64,000 bases of DNA, taken from assembly GCA_964016885.1 (NCBI GenBank), contig OZ024742.1, positions 353,462,001 to 353,526,000 of the forward strand, given 5' to 3'. Source of the DNA: Eledone cirrhosa. Lineage: Eukaryota. Positions 3,576-47,918 of this stretch are shown one piece after another (the stretch's first letter is position 1; each line of letters begins with the position of its first letter). The position numbers were made by a program, and so were the translations under genes. The notes beneath the pieces are model-generated. The model did no database searches, was not told the DNA's origin, and saw only the letters and a list, made by a program, of their open reading frames with translations.

Positions 3576-3694
3576 ACATTAATGCAACCTATCTCTGAGG
3601 AATGGTCATCCATTTGCACTTTCATACTATGAGCAGGTTTTTCCTTTGAATCATCTATTGGAACACACGCCGTAACCCACCGCATGGTAATATA

Positions 3695-3772
<78 letters not shown>

Positions 3773-4057
3773 CAAATAACGAAACGAAATTAAATTTCGT
3801 TTCGCTTCTAACTCACTTTTGTATGACTGACGCTTAAACAATTAAGTTAAAGTGTACATCTACATATGTATACGGAAGTATTAGTATGCATATAAATACA
3901 CACATGAATACATATGTACATGTACTCAGCTTTTCACTAGACACTTTACAGTGAGTGTCAGCTAGTCTGTATGTAACCACACAGACGGACCGGGTTTTAG
4001 AGTCATACGGGTTTTCAAGGAAACACATTTCCTCTATTTTCCAGAGGGCCAGACAGG

Positions 4058-4102
4058 AATATTGGACTAGTTTCGATGTTATTACATCTCATCAGCAATA
4101 TT
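4058..4102 (-). ncRNA. Type I hammerhead ribozyme (469-bp unit, copy 1)
   Basis: aatattg-CTGATGA-gatgt(aata)acatc-GAAAC-ta-GTC-caatatt: 7-bp stem I, 5-bp stem II, palindromic ACTAGT stem III. Confidence 0.92.
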
Positions 4103-4162
4103 TACCCATCTTCCGGCTTCTCTGGAGAATTGTAAAAGCACATATCGTTATATGCTTTTTCA

Positions 4163-4208
4163 ATGAAAATTAGTAGTGGGTAGACCAATTTGCATAGAAC
4201 GTGAGTCA
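4163..4208 (-). promoter_or_regulatory. Candidate internal promoter module: AP-1 (TGACTCA), 6 nt, octamer (ATGCAAAT), inverted octamer-like site
   Basis: ATGAAAAT 4163-4170, ATTTGCAT 4188-4195, TGAGTCA 4202-4208; same layout in the diverged family at 45248-45294. Confidence 0.45.
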
Positions 4209-4526
4209 TTGTACGCACCGGTTCAGCGGAAACGATAAAAACAAATAAAGAAACGAAATTAAATTTCGTTTCGCTTCTAACTCACTTTCGTATGACTGAC
4301 GTTTAAACAATTAAGTTAAAGTGTACATCTACATATGTATACGGAAGTATTAGTATGCATATAAATACACACATGTATACATATGTACATGTACTCAGCT
4401 TTTCACTAGACACTTTACAGTGAGTGTCAGCTAGTCTGTATGTAACCACACAGACGGACCGGGTTTTAGAGTCATACGGGTTTTCAAGGAAACACATTTC
4501 CTCTATTTTCCAGAGGGCCAGACAGG

Positions 4527-4571
4527 AATATTGGACTAGTTTCGATGTTATTACATCTCATCAGCAATATT
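4527..4571 (-). ncRNA. Type I hammerhead ribozyme (469-bp unit, copy 2)
   Basis: Identical to 4058-4102. Confidence 0.92.
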
Positions 4572-4995
4572 TACCCATCTTCCGGCTTCTCTGGAGAATT
4601 GTAAAAGCACATATCGTTATATGCTTTTTCAATGAAAATTAGTAGTGGGTAGACCAATTTGCATAGAACGTGAGTCATTGTACGCACCGGTTCAGCGGAA
4701 ACGATAAAAACAAATAACGAAACGAAATTAAATTTCGTTTCGCTTCTAACTCACTTTTGTATGACTGACGCTTAAACAATTAAGTTAAAGTGTACATCTA
4801 CATATGTATACGGAAGTATTAGTATGCATATAAATACACACATGTATACATATGTACATGTACTCAGCTTTTCACTAGACACTTTACAGTGAGTGTCAGC
4901 TAGTCTGTATGTAACCACACAGACGGACCGGGTTTTAGAGTCATACGGGTTTTCAAGGAAACACATTTCCTCTATTCTCCAGAGGGCCAGACAGG

Positions 4996-5040
4996 AATAT
5001 TGGACTAGTTTCGATGTTATTACATCTCATCAGCAATATT
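4996..5040 (-). ncRNA. Type I hammerhead ribozyme (469-bp unit, copy 3)
   Basis: Identical to 4058-4102. Confidence 0.92.
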
Positions 5041-5249
5041 TACCCATCTTCCGGCTTCTCTGGAGAATTGTAAAAGCATATATCGTTATATGCTTTTTCT
5101 ATGAAAATTAGTAGTGGGTAGACCAATTTGCATAGAACGTGAGTCATTGTACGCACCGGTTCAGCGGAAACGATAAAAACAAATAACGAAACGAAATTAA
5201 ATTTCGTTTCGCTTTTAACTCACTTTTGTATGACTGACGCTTAAACAAC

Positions 5250-5288
5250 GCTGATGAGATGTAATAACATCGAAACTAGTCCAATATT
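5250..5288 (+). ncRNA. 5'-truncated hammerhead at the inversion junction
   Basis: Starts g-CTGATGA; lacks most of the 5' strand of stem I. Confidence 0.8.
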
Positions 5289-5712
5289 CCTGTCTGGCCC
5301 TCTGGGGAATAGAGGAAATGTGTTTCCTTGAAAACCCGTATGACTCTAAAACCCGGTCCGTCTGTGTGGTTACATACAGACTAGCTGACACTCACTGTAA
5401 AGTGTCTAGTGAAAAGCTGAGTACATGTACATATGTATACATGTGTGTATTTATATGCATACTAATACTTCCGTATACATATGTAGATGCACACTTTAAC
5501 TTAATTGTTTAAGCGTCAGTCATACAAAAGTGATTTAGAAGCGAAACGAAATTTAATTTCGTTTCGTTATTTGTTTTTATCGTTTCCGCTGAACCGGTGC
5601 GTACAATGACTCACGTTCTATGCAAATTGGTCTACCCACTACTAATTTTCATAGAAAAAGCATATAACGATATGTGCTTTTACAATTCTCCAGAGAAGCC
5701 GGAAGATGGGTA

Positions 5713-5757
5713 AATATTGCTGATGAGATGTAATAACATCGAAACTAGTCCAATATT
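5713..5757 (+). ncRNA. Type I hammerhead ribozyme (469-bp unit)
   Basis: aatattgCTGATGAgatgtaataacatcGAAACtaGTCcaatatt. Confidence 0.92.
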
Positions 5758-6182
5758 CCTGTCTGGCCCTCTGGAGAATAGAGGAAATGTGTTTCCTTGA
5801 AAACCCGTATGACTCTAAAACCCGGTCCGTCTGTGTGGTTACATACAGACTAGCTGACACTCACTGTAAAGTGTCTAGTGAAAAGCTGAGTACATGTACA
5901 TATGTATACATGTGTGTATTTATATGCATACTAATACTTCCGTATACATATGTATATGCACACTTTAACTTAATTGTTTAAGCGTCACTCATACAAAAGT
6001 GAGTTAGAAGCGAAACGAAATTTAATTTCGTTTCGTTAATTGTTTTTATCGTTTCCGCTGAACCGGTGCGTACAATGACCTCACGTTCTATGCAAATTGG
6101 TCTACCCACTACTAATTTTCATAGAAAAAGCATATAACGATATGTGCTTTTACAATTCTCCAGAGAAGCCGGAAGATGGGTA

Positions 6183-6227
6183 AATATTGCTGATGAGATG
6201 TAATAACATCGAAACTAGTCCAATATT
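6183..6227 (+). ncRNA. Type I hammerhead ribozyme (469-bp unit)
   Basis: Identical to 5713-5757. Confidence 0.92.
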
Positions 6228-6439
6228 CCTGTCTGGCCCTCTGGAGAATAGAGGAAATGTGTTTCCTTGAAAACCCGTATGACTCTAAAACCCGGTCCGT
6301 CTGTGTGGTTACATACAGACTAGCTGACACTCACTGTAAAGTGTCTAGTGAAAAGCTGAGTACATGTACATATGTATACATGTGTGTATTTATTTGCATA
6401 CTAATACTTCCGTATACATATGTAGATGTACACTTTAAC

Positions 6440-6483
<44 letters not shown>

Positions 6484-9432: not shown

Positions 9433-10100
9433 ATTAGAATTGGAGCTCTGAAATAGCAATATATATATGGATGTATATATAATGTATTTTGCAATACACT
9501 TCATGCTTAATTAAAATCATATTGAAGACCGTATGCTACTGTTTTAGAGTAGTGACACATTCACTTACTTTAATCTAAGCGAACAGGGGAGATAAGCCGA
9601 CAACGCCGTGTTTCGCTTTTGTTGAAGTTTATCAAGGCTAACTACCTCTCCTGTCTACTGAGATTACTGATGCTATATTCTTATAGAATTCTAGTAAGTA
9701 ATCAGCAACTGATTATACAGAGCGATTGTTGGTCAGGCAGAAATTAAAAATTAGAATTGGAGCTCTGAAATAGCAATATATATATGGATGTATATATAAT
9801 CTGTTTTGCAATACACTTTATGCTTAATTAAAAGCATTTTGAAGACCGTATGCTATTGTTTTAGAGTAGTGACAAATGCACTTCCTTTAATCTCAGCAAA
9901 CAGGGGAGATAAGCCGACAAGGCCTTGTTTCGCTTTTGTTGAAGCTTATCAAGGCTAACTACCTCTCCTGTCTACTGAGATTACTGATGTTATATTATTA
10001 TAGAATTCTAATAAATAATCAGCAACTGATTATACATAGCGATTGTTGGTCAGGCAGAAATTAAAAAATTAGAATTGGAGCTCTGAAATAGCAATATATA
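9433..10100 (-). mobile_element. Tandem array (~2.1 copies) of a 317-bp hammerhead-containing unit
   Basis: Repeat starts at 9434, 9751 and 10069; HHR at 9595-9639 and 9912-9956. Confidence 0.85.
9912..9956 (-). ncRNA. Type I hammerhead with U3-A8 core
   Basis: agcc-TTGATAA-gctt(caacaa)aagc-GAAAC-aaggcctt-GTC-ggct; palindromic ACAAGGCCTTGT. Confidence 0.85.
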
Positions 10101-10101
10101 T

Positions 10102-10260
10102 ATCATCATCGTTTAACGTCCATTTTCCAGGCTAACATGAGTCTGGATGGGAATCGTCCCACTTGAGGCAAGATTGGTTGTCTTGCTCAGGATTGTCTGG
10201 TGGGTTTTCTACAGCTGGATGCCCTTCCTAACACCAACCACATTTACAGTGTGGAGAGTG
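10102..10260 (-). mobile_element. Octopus-type SINE/RTE-related 3' fragment
   Basis: catcatcgtttaacgtcc...ggatgcccttcctaacaccaaccac signature recalled as an abundant octopus repeat. Confidence 0.55.
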
Positions 10261-40988: not shown

Positions 40989-40995
<7 letters not shown>

Positions 40996-43550
40996 ATACT
41001 TGGGGAGGGTCATATTTGCGTAATATTGCCAGAATTAATAACAGAACACACTCACTGTTTGGTTGGTTTTCGCTTCTCGCTGTCTTTTATTATATCTGCG
41101 ATCTAACTTACTCGGTCCTCAATGTTGCCATTGACTGACCGGCGGTCAAAAATAATACAGATACAATATAGACACAAACACATATATATATATATAGTTT
41201 ACATAATTTACATAAATCTTTCGTTGCACATCTGCAACATCGTCAGTGGTGTTATATTAATTGTTCCTCCTGTTGTGTTGTATGTCTACGCCATTTTTTT
41301 TTTGTTCAGTCTGTCTATATATTTATTTATTTATTTGCTTGTTTGTTTATCTTATTTTATTTTGTCTTCTTTGCGCATGCGTTTGCGTGTGTGTATAGTG
41401 TTATGTGTGATGTGTGACTAGTGTGTATAGTGTTGTGTCTGCTGGGTGACTAGTGTGTGTTTATGTGCTTGTTGTTATTGTGCTTGTGTATGTATTTATT
41501 TATCTTATTTTATTTAATTTTATTTACTTATTTATACTTCTCTTAGGTCAGTGTTGTTTGTTTGGGTGTTGTTGTTGTTCCACTCATTCTTTCTGTTTAG
41601 CTTTGGTCTTCTAATTTCTATTTCACGGGCCTCTCTGATTTGCCTATCTGCTGGGTCATTCCTATGTTTAGATATTATTCTAACTTCTATGTTGTCTATG
41701 TTACCGTCATGTTGTTGTCTAGCATGTTCGTATAGTACTGACCCGTTTTTTCGTCCTTTTAGTTCGCCCCAGTGTTGGTCTATCCTTTCACCTATGCTAC
41801 GAGCTGTCTCACCTATGTATGTTGTTGTCATGTTTCTGCAAGTACCCTCTGTACATCTTATGCTATAGACTACGTTTCTAGTTTTACAGTTTATCCGGGG
41901 GTTCACCTTACATATGATACACTTCCTATTGGTACAGTGGGTTTTCTTAAAAGGGTAGGTCTTGCTGATCAGGGATTTTATGGTGGTTCCTGGCTTTTCT
42001 ACCACCTTTATTTTTAAGTGGGTCTTTCTCAGGGCCTTTCTACACCGGTTAGCTAATTTTCCTCCAGGGGTGGCGTCCACAAACATGACACTCTGATATC
42101 TCTGGTTGTCGTACCATGATGTGGCCTTCCCTATCTTATGTCTAGCCCTATCTAAGCTATTCCATGATTTGCTCCTGTATAGTGGGCAGATTCCTTTCAT
42201 GTCCAGTTCTATGAGGGTCTTATACTTTTCCATGGCTCCTTCGTATACTCTGACTCTGTCTCTTTGGTTGTAGCCAGAGAACTACATGCGGTTGATGAAG
42301 TGTTGGATGTGTCCTTCCATTTCTGTTGGGTCGCACATGCTGGACACATTCTTCATCACTCGTACCAAATCTGCGATCAGAATATTAAACTTAGCACTAC
42401 TGGACATTGCTGAGATTTTGAGTATCAGGTATTTGGAAGCCATGGGTTTAGCATAGTGTGAGTGGAGAATTTGGGCTCTCTCGTCTATAGTGTTAATCCA
42501 GAGTTATGTGTCTAATACAAGTAGTCTATTGTTAGAGTGTTTGGAAGGGAAGTCTATAGTTACAGTTATACTCTGGTGTATGGAATTAGCTATATGCTGG
42601 ATGCTTTCCATCGTGCTACGTTCTAAATCAAACTTGTTAGTGCTCTCTAGTGGGGGTTTTCTTATAACTATATTGATATCGTCTACATAACGAGAGTACA
42701 TGATGAGGTCTATGGAGCTTTCATTAAGGAGATCTTTAAGTTTCCTTTCCCACCATACCATGAAAAGGTTGGCAACATCACCAGCTATGCTGACACCGAT
42801 GGCTGCTCCCTCATTTTGGGTGTAGATTTTCTCATTGAACTTAAATATGTGGCCCTTTAGGGTAGTTTTGATACTAGCCCCTATTGCATGTGCGACTATT
42901 TTTCTTACCTGATCAGTGTTTTGGGGGGTCCGTATGGCTTTGGTCCACCCAATCCACCTTCCTATGGGAGTCTTTTTAGCCATTGAGGTTATGGTGGGGG
43001 GTCTACCTCTTATAGGTCTACTAGGGCAGAAACATCTAAGGTCATGGCTGTCTAGGTAGTCAGTGTCGTAGGTAAGTCTAAGTAGAAGGCCCAGTTCGTC
43101 TGTGTCGACGTCGCAGAACTCCACCTCACTCTCAATGATCATCTCCACACATCTTTTCACAGCAAAATCAATGTTAATGGATGGGTACAGTGACACCACA
43201 TCCATGCTGCCTATTATGCAGTTGGATAGGCTCCTGTTTTTGTTGCACTCACTGATTCTGCTGAGGAGGTCCTCTGTACTTTCACATACATCTGGGGACA
43301 TCTTGATTATGGGGCGTATAACCATTGAGAGGAAGTAGGAGATCCTGTAATTGCTAGCTATATTAGCTCCGCATACGCGTCTTGTTGGTGGTCCTGTTGT
43401 CGGGTCGTCGACTGTCTTGTGGTCTTTGCGGAGCCCATACAAGGGTGGTATGCCATTGTTAGACGCCTGGAAGTTGTTTTGCAGTGCGTCTGCTTGGCTT
43501 TAGGATGTCAGTCCACATCATCATGTGAGCGTCAGTCCACATCATCCTCA
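40989..43550 (-). mobile_element. Penelope-like element family A1, 5'-truncated
   Basis: RT, GIY-YIG and pseudo-LTR; ends ...tataacaata in (TA)n. Confidence 0.92.
41532..43530 (-). pseudogene. PLE RT / GIY-YIG ORF with two in-frame stops (42504 and ~42284)
   Basis: YGLRKDHK, GSMDVVSLYPSI, QNEGAAIG, RYVDD, YAKPMAS; CIIC..NCKTRNVVY, YIGETARS..ER..QH, RQIREA, LNRKNEW; ORFs 42504-43442 and 41532-42233 share a frame. Confidence 0.92.
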
Positions 43551-44790
43551 ACGCTCACATGATGATGTGGACTGACATCCTAAAGCCAAGCAGACGTAAG
43601 ATAGGGAAGGCCACATCATGGTACGACAACCAGAGATATCAGAGTGTCATGTTTGTGGACGCCACCCCTGGAGGGAAATTAGCTAACCAGTGTAGAAAGG
43701 CCCTGAGAAAGACCCACTTAAAAATAAAGGTGGTAGAAAAGCCAGAAACCACCATAAAATCCCTGATCAGCAAGACCTACCCTTTTAAGAAAACCCACTG
43801 TACCAATAGGAAGTGTATCATATGTAAGGTGAACCCCCGGATAAACTGTAAAACTAGAAACGTAGTCTATAGCATAAGATGTACAGAGGGTACTTGCAGA
43901 AACATGACAACAACATACATAGGTGAGACAGCTCGTAGCATAGGTGAAAGGATAGACCAACACTGGGGCGAACTAAAAGGACGAAAAAACGGGTCAGTAC
44001 TATACGAACATGCTAGACAACAACATGACGGTAACATAGACAACATAGAAGTTAGAATAATATCTAAACATAGGAATGACCCAGCAGATCGGCAAATCAG
44101 AGAGGCCAGTGAAATAGAAATTAGAAGACCAAAGCTAAACAGAAAGAATGAGTGGAACAACAACAACACCCAAACAAACAACACTGACCTAAGAGAAGTA
44201 TAAATAGGTAAATAAAATTAAATAAAATAAGATAAATAAATACATACACAAGCACAATAACAACAAGCACATAAACACACACTAGTCACCCAGCAGACAC
44301 AACACTATACACACTAGTCACACATCACACATAACACTATACACACACGCAAACGCATGCGCAAAGAAGACAAAATAAAATAAGATAAACAAACAAGCAA
44401 ATAAATAAATAAATATATAGACAGACTGAACAAAAAAAAAGTGGCGTAGACATACAACACAACAGGAGGAACAATGAATATAACACCACTGACGATGTTG
44501 CAGATGTGCAACGAAAGATTTATGTAAATTATGTAAACTATATATATATATATGTGTTTGTGTCTATATTGTATCTGTATTATTTTTGACCGCCGGTCAG
44601 TCAATGGCAACATTGAGGACCGAGTAAGTTAGATCGCAGATATAATAAAAGACAGCGAGAAGCGAAAACCAACCAAACAGTGAGTGTGTTCTGTTATTAA
44701 TTCTGGCAATATTACGCAAATATGACCCTCCCCAAGTATAACAATATCTGTTTCGACACACGATTTCATATAAAAAACCTCGCAAAACTA

Positions 44791-44792: not shown

Positions 44793-45598
<806 letters not shown>

Positions 45599-45599
45599 G

Positions 45600-47045
45600 C
45601 ATATTCAGACATATTCGACGTCTCCATGGGATCGTTCGACAGTGCTGACGTATGTGACTTAGTTGGCCTATTTATTTTAGAGATATTACGTGTTAGATTC
45701 CCGGACTACCACACGGGAATATAGCGCGACGACGGACTGATCTTATCGAGTCATATCACTGGTCACGACCTCGACCAGTTTGAAAAAGACTTAGCTTCGA
45801 CCTTCAATATGTTAAGACTTAGGATAACAGTAGCTACCATCCTCTCTAGCGTAGATTTCTTAGACATTAATTTAGACCTTCGTACACACACCCACAGACC
45901 CTTTCATATGCTAAACGAAAAACTCAATTACATTAACAAGGACTCATGCCACCCTCTCACTGTTTTTAGAAATTCGTAAATAATATCAGTACTAGAATCT
46001 CAAATCTCAACTCTAATAAGGCTATAGTTGACAGGGCGGCACCATACTATAACATGGAGTTAGCTAACAGCGGATTCTCACAACCTATCACTTACTCTCC
46101 CACTGTCAACAACAGCAATAAGAAAAGAGAGCGCAACAATAGACAAACTATCTGGTTCTCTCCTCCTTTCTCACTCAACGTTACAACCAATGTAGGCAAC
46201 ATATGTCTAGCCCTCTTAGATAGACACTTTCCCATAGGTCAATAATACCTCTCCATCCTTATCCGACACAAAGTTAAACTAGGATACGCCTGCGCTAAGT
46301 ACATGAAGGCCCACATCACCAGCAACCCCAGGAACAACACCCACAAGGGTGCTCATGCCGTAAGCCCGTAACTTGCCCCTTCAACAGCAATGCAACACAC
46401 CAGCTGTAATTTATGAAGATGTGGTCACTTCCAACCGAGCAAACGAACCACAGGAGGTCAAATCATATGTGGGTATTGCAGAGGGCCTATTTAAGGAACG
46501 TTTCCTGAACCATCAGTCGATCTTTAGGTACCCGGACAGACGTTCCTCCACGAAATCGCGAGCCACGTATAGTCCCTCAAGGACTCAATTATAGACTACT
46601 CCATTCAATACAAAGCCATCACTAAGTTCAAGACAGACGCAAGGGCAAATCCGTCGTGTCGACTATGTATTGAGGAACGATTAAATATTCTAAAGAGATT
46701 ATGCAATAGTGATTGCCTAAAAATGAGGAAAGAATTTTTCACACATTGACTACACGTCTCGAAACACCTATTGCATAACTACAAAGCTCCGGATTGAATG
46801 AATTATCGTAACAATATCATATTTCTTATCAACTAAAAACTTTTCGTTCTTTCGCAGTTATCTCACTTACACTTCTCGCACGCATTTTAGTATTGTCTGT
46901 GGGAAGTGACCGGTTTCTGCGCATGCGCGTTTGTAAGGTCGTCCTTCCTGTTCCGTATAATCATGCGCATTACGAGCTGTGGATCCGCTAAGGTGAAACA
47001 ATTGTTCCCGGTATGGTGAATTAACTGTTGTGTAACCACTTCTAT
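45600..47045 (+). pseudogene. PLE family C (Hydra-clade-like), decayed RT C-terminus + GIY-YIG + pseudo-LTR
   Basis: FDVSMGSFDSADVCDLVGL, I*RDDGL, VDFLDINLDL, IWFSPPFS, YVGIAEGLFKERFLNH, CRLCIEE. Confidence 0.88.
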
Positions 47046-47918
47046 ATATATATATACATTTGGTTGCGCATTATCTTCCGATCTATGAGTAAATGGTAAA
47101 TATGCGCATATGTATTTCAAAATTGCATTCCGAGCGCGTAGATGTGTCTAGAAATTTACAAATTAATTGTGGAAATATATGTAAACATGTATATATTTCC
47201 CGGTGAACATTAAAATATGATTAATATTCATACGATGTTTGAAATCGAATTTGTCCGCTCAGTGATGTCAATCCATCCAAAGAATGCAATCTGGTAGATA
47301 TCTGTCTCGGTACACATTTGGATTAAATTATATTTGTGCTGCTTAGTGTAAAATTTAATATATCTTTAATGTTTCTACCATCATATTCAGTGGAAAGTTA
47401 TTTGTGTGTAATACTAAGTTTAGGCGGGGAATTCACAGAGTCGTTAATGTGTGGAATAGAAGAATTTGCAGCATTATTGCATGGGTTCTGTCTCTGTTCC
47501 CTGAGTTCATATCAAACTGAGTTCAATTTTGCATTTCATGCTTTCGAGTTCGTTAAAAACACAACGTTTAAGTACTGGGGTTTACTCTTCCTATATCTCC
47601 CTTTCCCATTTTCAATCTATCAATCTCTATCCATTTCTGGAAGCATTCTTATGTGTTCAGACATAGAGAGTTGATGAGAACCACCAGATCAGATCCCCTA
47701 TGTATCATTCAAGTGTAACGGAACCAGGCATGCACTACTGAAAGTACAAGATCTAATAGTATTTCCTAAATTGAAGTATCTTCTTGAGTTGTTTGCGAAA
47801 AAGGCTCGCAATTTGATTAAGTGTCCTAGTCTTATGAATCTGCGATAAACAGGCGAAACACCAATGTAAAACGAACCGGTATTTAGCAAAAATGAAATGA
47901 ATATATATATATATATAT

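Follow-up and report, generated by a model that had tools for sequence, protein, structure and literature searches.

The stretch of the Eledone cirrhosa genome analysed here, 64,000 nucleotides of contig OZ024742.1 (hereafter the window, in whose numbering positions are given), carries a non-coding tandem repeat at 3766–6445, the units of which contain a hammerhead ribozyme motif. This element is probably a retrozyme without long terminal repeats (LTRs), the edited circular RNA of which would be reverse-transcribed in rolling-circle fashion by a Penelope-like element (PLE). Mobilization of the retrozyme by a PLE is very likely, and a circular template appears probable from the sequences of the inserted products. 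At the sequence level, the element fits the definition of a non-LTR retrozyme. This identification, already made by a first-pass annotation of the window, is supported: the repeat is dispersed and tandemly arranged, it lacks coding sequence, its type I hammerhead is canonical and differs between subfamilies by compensatory changes, and in none of 99 sampled insertions did it prove to be the pseudo-LTR of a coding PLE.

The first-pass annotation had called the element a satellite, but it is a mobile family scattered through the genome, and the locus is a single insertion of that family. With unit position 1 set at the first base 3′ of the predicted cut, 2,045 exact junctions between position 299 and (TA)n were found in the 3.0-Gb genome, and the exact hammerhead core of the window (subfamily A) occurs in 1,463 genome copies; reversed controls gave 0 in both searches. 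The tandem arrays reach 25 identical units. The units sort into nine clusters of 462–470 bp, with 86–100% identity to the window unit, and the copies are dispersed without an LTR pair (primer-binding site and polypurine tract had no separate search). In addition, 49% and 28% of sampled words of the unit were found in sequencing runs labelled organisms B and C, respectively, and the family may extend to related species. A haemocyanin unit encoded in the genome gave 855 bits with PDB 1JS8, 734–738 bits with 6R83 and 4YD9 and at most 514 bits with the others; with octopus, squid and gastropod entries among these structures, the scores make an octopod the likely host.

The insertion anatomy was described from the first 100 junctions on the list, one of which was a duplicate, leaving 99 (sets of 80 and 19). 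The duplicate rows L038 and L081 were dropped, the compound locus L031 was left out of the variant counts, and 20 best-match loci were left out of the architecture counts. The arm ending at position 299 (the long end) has an inverted partner ending at 225–230 against (TA)n (the short end) in 60/80 and 16/19 loci, or 76/99, and a stricter motif rule for the inverted pair gives 65/98. Among the other 23, the fetched stretch ends before the partner in seven, and the remainder have a different inverted end, run straight into (TA)n or meet unrelated DNA. The tail between the short and the long end measures 69–74 nt. The 5′ ends are scattered over the unit, with a mean run of 921 nt, and arms pass the cut site in 65/80 long-end and 39/50 short-end cases. 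The passage is clean, as 6 of 392 cut-site junctions are altered in the first 4 nt, with about 4 expected from the single-unit rate. Truncations cluster at a hairpin at 255–280 (18 vs 6.7, permutation p = 0.008), although part of this hot spot may stem from the difficulty of aligning palindromic sequence.

The combination of a 5′-truncated tandem, an inverted copy and an optional 3′ tail is present as in PLE-mobilized elements, the insertions of which are described in these terms in the available parts of PMC8557442 and PMC3846280. In an in vitro assay, each strand of AT-rich DNA was nicked by a PLE protein, with priming at two internal RNA sites that bound the tail (PMC11167929). Classical L1 twin priming, in which arm 1 halts where arm 2 begins, was considered and rejected: both arms pass the cut in 32/50 loci and both exceed one unit in 15. 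Two arm junctions contain further sequence. At L129:795-860, a 66-nt piece of an R2-like retrotransposon open reading frame (ORF), the source copies of which lie beside 28S rRNA, stands between two arms that each stop 14 nt past the cut, suggesting a template jump onto another retroelement RNA. At L065:4240-4270, short repeated restarts are located near the cut site.

Template identity and editing marks

Both arms of an insertion trace to one template. The arm–arm difference is at most 3.1% in 55/55 two-armed loci, with a median of 3.9–11% to other loci, and in 23/55 no other locus is closer than the partner arm. In the youngest cluster, unit divergence is 0.03% within arms vs 1.4% between loci. 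Jumping among a pool of different monomers is excluded by this likeness of the arms, the crossing of the cut site and the clean junctions. Arm likeness and clean cut-site passage together leave as the template an uncleaved multimer or a circle, the latter either intact or nicked.

Changes were counted over 411 conserved columns, and distinct array-wide changes, present in all copies of a locus, were separated from changes in single units. The 76 array-wide changes comprise 32 A>G (42%), 12 T>C, 9 C>T, 7 G>A and 16 transversions, with a significant excess of A>G over T>C (p = 0.0014). The 338 single-unit changes include 36 A>G (11%) and 34 T>C, and the A>G share differs sharply between the two classes (Fisher p = 1e-9). 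Selection for G-U wobble pairs was rejected as the cause of A>G; it should also raise C>T, and the observed counts are 32 vs 9. Antisense editing as a source of T>C gave no sign among the array-wide changes, 5/12 T>C lying in a disfavoured context.

The same bias is found when haplotypes are followed stepwise. From the base variant (L074, L123) to L097/L146, five of the six changes are A>G; from L097, the nearest relative, to L088, all three changes are A>G, as are all three from the base variant to L067; and between L089 and L106, A>G makes up 11/15 differences. The L088 haplotype occurs at a single locus genome-wide, in 4/4 copies over both arms, and its three-unit arm extends only 24 nt beyond whole units, so that unequal crossover does not easily account for it. 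The A>G-rich L089 haplotype is likewise confined to one locus. The L067 haplotype occurs at 7 loci with 69 matches, and 52 identical 468-bp units were counted at four of them. In the window array, A>G at unit position 348 is present in all five covering copies, in both arms. The simplest reading of such marks would be one edited monomer copied repeatedly, i.e., a circle.

In the proposed cycle, the array would be transcribed, and adjacent hammerheads are predicted, from the architecture and from newt and axolotl precedent, to pair via the palindrome ACUAGU and to excise monomers. The monomer would then be ligated, the lone circle being stable for want of a partner ribozyme, and ADAR likely edits some of its adenosines, as the A>G excess suggests. 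Subsequently, each strand of the (TA)n target would be nicked by a PLE protein, with priming inside the RNA at 299 on one strand and 225–230 on the other; these ends are observed in the insertions, the enzyme being the presumed agent. In the products, both complementary DNAs pass the ribozyme site, with a mean run of about 920 nt, and are joined 5′ to 5′. The fuller scenario is somewhat favoured on balance: the circular RNA would be the actual transposition intermediate, the PLE priming twice on one circle from both cut (TA)n strands and rolling in both directions; ADAR edits would be copied into every repeat and inherited, and an edited L067-type variant (three A>G) would be spreading now.

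Helper candidates and competing explanations

A young PLE family with a 1,217-codon open frame in many copies is the leading candidate for the helper, and one insertion of it lies in the window at 40990–44790. Its C-x4-C-x2-C linker ahead of the GIY-YIG motif would place it in the Neptune type, as described in the available part of PMC8557442. In 9/9 loci with both ends fetched, the family forms head-to-head arms, one of which terminates in (TA)n at a long end and the other at a short end, with a tail of 45 or 59 nt. At L177–L181, whole units of 4,117 bp are arrayed in tandem, 99.98% identical, in head-to-head arms, and a hammerhead-like motif different from that of the retrozyme is located 252 nt before the short end; this PLE may itself be copied from a circle. 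With Pfam, a single PLE fragment gave a weak RVT_1 match, but there was no match for the complete PLE ORF, which contains a long asparagine-rich insert resembling Adineta Pen3/4.

Hydra-type PLEs (CxCX5C linker; 36.5–38.6 kb and 45.6–47.0 kb of the window) are likewise located in (TA)n, and the searched family is more diverged, with best relatives at 88–90%. At 44840–47050, an arm of a sister retrozyme family, family 2, stands head-to-head with a 5′-truncated Hydra-type PLE that ends in (TA)n, with no (TA)n between them, a possible mixed-template insertion. Hybrid insertions were not accepted as proving the helper: L103 lies within a fragment of a long interspersed element, L042, L082 and L150 are explained by the common (TA)n target, and L047 is ambiguous. 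At L047:214-5591, a near-whole Neptune-type PLE runs into exactly three retrozyme turns in the same orientation, the joint lying 27 nt before the PLE short end, which reflects a template switch or, alternatively, insertion of the retrozyme into the end of the PLE.

Several points weigh against the circular, PLE-copied reading. When changes are polarized by the 10 nearest loci, A>G and T>C no longer differ significantly, either at distinct sites (23 vs 16, p = 0.26) or at private sites (22 vs 12, p = 0.09); the share of A>G nevertheless remains different from that among single-unit changes (p = 1e-6). Changes fixed in both arms count 44 vs 37 (p = 0.32), inflated by the common changes of one subfamily. 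A 5′ G neighbour, disfavoured by ADAR, is absent from A>G sites in one count (0/23, p = 0.014) and present in the other (4/32, p = 0.32), and A>G sites are not significantly enriched in predicted stems (23/32 vs 60/98). A parent locus absent from the assembly could hold the "private" edits, which would merely shift the monomer bottleneck back by one generation. Variants in older arrays recur every 2 (L050), 4 (L122) or 6 (L095) units, which points to multimeric circles or to blocks duplicated once the array had been inserted; array length is therefore not wholly due to rolling-circle copying. The cut triplets of 456 sampled hammerheads are GUU in 212, GUC in 209, GUA in 33 and GUG in 2; GUU, present in about half of the sample, is a slower triplet. 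No similarity was detected between the Neptune-type PLE unit and the retrozyme unit, and since the two have no sequence in common, their pairing rests on age, target and anatomy. Finally, uncleaved RNA is the dominant in vitro substrate of an Anolis PLE, and cleavage is not required for insertion (PMC11167929), while only 1/9 Xenopus retrozyme dimers was cleaved (bioRxiv 10.64898/2026.07.22.740005).

In a competing explanation, the PLE instead copied an uncleaved linear multimer from an existing array, the products being homogenized or lengthened at the DNA level after insertion. Such a template is rather unlikely. It is favoured by the unprocessed substrate of the Anolis enzyme, the weak helix III of the hammerhead, the visible block duplications and five cases of variants common to some units of both arms. 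It is disfavoured because independent marking, unit by unit, would raise single-unit A>G, whereas 36 A>G vs 34 T>C were observed; moreover, private edits are present in every copy of L088 and L089, and ten arms consist of two or more whole units plus less than 40 nt. DNA mutation followed by conversion is disfavoured because its spectrum would be strand-symmetric, and homogenization at the DNA level should show the symmetric spectrum of the single-unit changes. A cleaved but unligated monomer, with ends held by helix I and the enzyme hopping from 5′ end to 3′ end at each turn, predicts the same array-wide edits as a circle; its ends are paired in the predicted fold, and truncations in the 21 nt after the cut are about twofold in excess (13 vs 6.0 expected, p = 0.0085, for an interval picked post hoc). 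End-to-end template jumps, as in R2, usually gain or lose bases, whereas the junctions here are as clean as other positions. RtcB, furthermore, circularizes such monomers efficiently, according to the available part of PMC7229834, and the unligated template is improbable.

Two further explanations were weighed. That the unit is a mere pseudo-LTR of a coding PLE elsewhere, the arrays being truncated PLE ends, is suggested by the PLE-like insertion anatomy (in the available parts of PMC8557442 and PMC3846280) and by the array that directly follows a near-whole Neptune-type copy at L047. In the 99 arms sampled from the 2,045 junctions, however, none leads into a homologous ORF, and none bounds an ORF with reverse transcriptase and GIY-YIG domains; upstream lies another unit, a junction or (TA)n, bar a few unrelated flanks. 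The Neptune-type unit carries a different hammerhead and lacks similarity to the retrozyme unit, and in the retrozyme hammerhead both loop 2 and the bulge of helix I are those of the canonical motif. This explanation, which the first-pass annotation had named as one that would overturn its proposal, is thus very improbable. Fainter still is the prospect of a DNA-level satellite with a vestigial ribozyme, spread by extrachromosomal DNA circles or recombination. The long arrays of identical units would suit it, but strand-fixed 3′ ends, random 5′ ends, the strand-asymmetric A>G excess and the R2 fragment captured at L129 point to an RNA step, and end polarity and mutation asymmetry have already largely refuted it.

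The window locus and its ribozyme

The locus in the window consists of two arms joined head-to-head (5′–5′) across a single additional base and is flanked left and right by (TA)n (Table 1), which masks any target-site duplication. The earlier count of about 5.7 near-identical units holds, with a period of 469/470, 98% matches and 3.2 + 2.5 units, and so does the internal hairpin described there, which lies in the tail. The array had been taken for a plain tandem repeat, and the inverted pair was overlooked. The simple release of monomers by read-through, as then envisaged, is not supported: a transcript across it would carry one arm antisense, which could pair with the other arm as a 1.2-kb duplex. 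The units are non-coding, as had been stated; the window array contains no ORF of at least 120 amino acids, and the longest ATG frame in a subfamily-A sister array has 64.

The claim of one perfect hammerhead per unit stands in part. Six cores are present (minus strand from 4095, 4564 and 5033; plus strand from 5251, 5720 and 6190), five of them complete, the core at 5251 having lost the 5′ strand of helix I, and helix III is weak. The sequence elements are as claimed, the core being flanked by helix I AAUAUUG/CAAUAUU and helix II GAUGU/ACAUC, with GUC ending at 5750 and 6220. The 7-bp helix I, a conserved GUA bulge, the 5-bp helix II and a loop 2 of AAUA or AACA make the motif a canonical type I hammerhead rather than a minimal form. 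Helix I and II pairs covary across the subfamilies and family 2, in which the core is invariant. Rfam Hammerhead_HH9 matches five units over its full model length with a score of 31.8 bits, short of its gathering score of 52; a scan of the whole window at gathering thresholds gave 0 matches, and matches to microRNA families over the TA-rich hairpin were far under threshold and were disregarded. Two more families of hammerhead-like motifs occur in flanking repeats (L041, L053 and L113; L033, L099 and L110).

Helix III is the weak palindrome ACUAGU, for which ViennaRNA gave no hairpin closure in the monomer and a self-pairing of -6.2 kcal/mol. Hammerheads with such a weak helix III depend on dimers, as stated in the available part of PMC4209133, and a helix of the ACUAGU type is expected to require a dimer for cleavage. 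For the RNA of a sister unit, the predicted fold has an energy of -163.8 kcal/mol (z = -12.75; 0/100 shuffles equally stable), with compensatory changes at 7/145 predicted pairs among 23 related units. The octamer ATGCAAAT, which resembles a promoter of newt satellite 2 (a literature search gave no supporting passage), is conserved in both families; it was nevertheless rejected as essential, because it belongs to a stem of the predicted fold and the spreading L067 lineage carries an A>G change in it. Family 2 has its insertion ends at homologous places (304 and 241–245) and carries U-U at the base of helix II. Elsewhere in the window, a 317-bp repeat is present in 2.1 copies (9433–10103, 94%).

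Table 1. Coordinates of the retrozyme insertion and related elements in the window
Feature	Positions	Strand	Remarks
(TA)n target, left flank	3690–3768	.	
Arm 1, 1,483 nt = 3.16 units	3766–5248	-	3′ end at unit position 299 (long end), 5′ truncation at 224
Tail, unit 226–299, at one end only	3766–3839	-	includes hairpin 3780–3804
Hammerhead core	4065–4095	-	predicted cut between 4065 and 4064
Hammerhead core	4534–4564	-	
Hammerhead core	5003–5033	-	
Head-to-head (5′–5′) junction, one extra base	5249–5249	.	
Arm 2, 1,196 nt = 2.55 units	5250–6445	+	5′ truncation at unit position 438, 3′ end at 225 (short end)
Hammerhead core without 5′ strand of helix I (removed by junction)	5251–5281	+	
Complete type I hammerhead	5713–5757	+	helix I 5713–5719/5751–5757, core from 5720, loop 2 AAUA, palindromic ACUAGU, predicted cut after 5750
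Complete type I hammerhead	6183–6227	+	core from 6190; predicted cut after 6220
(TA)n target, right flank	6445–6483	.	
Neptune-type PLE, separate insertion, two head-to-head arms, short and long end in (TA)n	40990–44790	.	family is candidate helper
Sister retrozyme family 2, about 460 bp, 63% identical, separate insertion	44840–45600	-	hammerhead core from 45193

Relation to known retrozymes and Penelope-like elements

Among the papers that a literature search listed, most of them judged from the listing, there was no account of a cephalopod retrozyme, of PLE tails at retrozyme ends or of editing marks indicating a circular template, although the supplement of PMC7229834 may list cephalopod examples. 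The metazoan non-LTR retrozymes of coral, mussel and axolotl, as presented in the available part of PMC7229834, share with the Eledone family tandem non-coding units with one type I hammerhead each, a GC content below 50% and a highly self-paired predicted RNA. The axolotl retrozyme described there has a short palindromic helix III, as in the Eledone unit, and the U-U at the base of helix II in family 2 resembles that of HHR_Amex2. The Eledone units are larger, at 462–472 bp vs 170–400 nt, and that portion of the paper does not describe the head-to-head arms, the pair of fixed internal ends, the preference for (TA)n targets or the editing marks found in the Eledone family. The retrozyme cycle of cleavage, circularization, reverse transcription by a borrowed enzyme and tandem insertion is a hypothesis in the same source, the available text of which proposes the circle as template and PLEs as helpers and demonstrates neither.

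Li, Clavereau and Pollet 2026 (bioRxiv 10.64898/2026.07.22.740005) regard animal retrozymes as non-autonomous PLE derivatives, the mechanism still to be elucidated, on the basis of co-occurrence and pseudo-LTR homology in 35 mostly vertebrate genomes, and suggest local tandem amplification from a PLE end. Their text has no mention of molluscs or of a tail, and nothing relevant on inverted arms or editing. In the Eledone family, by comparison, no pseudo-LTR homology was found, and arrays seem to arrive ready-made. The minimal hammerheads of PLE pseudo-LTRs, in the available part of PMC4209133, are type I and dimer-dependent like the Eledone motif, which has the canonical form instead.

The likeness to PLEs extends to the insertions themselves. 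PLEs (PMC8557442 and PMC3846280, in their available parts, and PMC11167929) and the Eledone family alike show a 5′-truncated tandem with an inverted copy, an optional tail at one end, a (TA)n bias and internal priming at two sites on both strands. They differ in tail length, which is 69–74 nt in Eledone vs 30–40 nt in the PLEs of the passages available, and in that the Eledone element lacks coding sequence and its two arms often each comprise several complete units of the same variant. With priming sites, target, templates of zero divergence and a young intact PLE all defined, the question can go straight to the published in vitro assay (PMC11167929). The marks suggest that adenosine-to-inosine editing can feed heritable change in cephalopod repeats; if the proposed cycle is true, a viroid-like parasite of an octopod genome would draw on RNA editing as a main source of its heritable variation, with an intact helper available for reconstitution. 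The retrozyme kind and its link to PLEs are already known from the systems above. What is unusual here is the direct mechanistic traces of the late steps, each visible at the level of the products: double priming of the PLE type, one template per insertion, clean passage of the cut site and editing marks in every turn.

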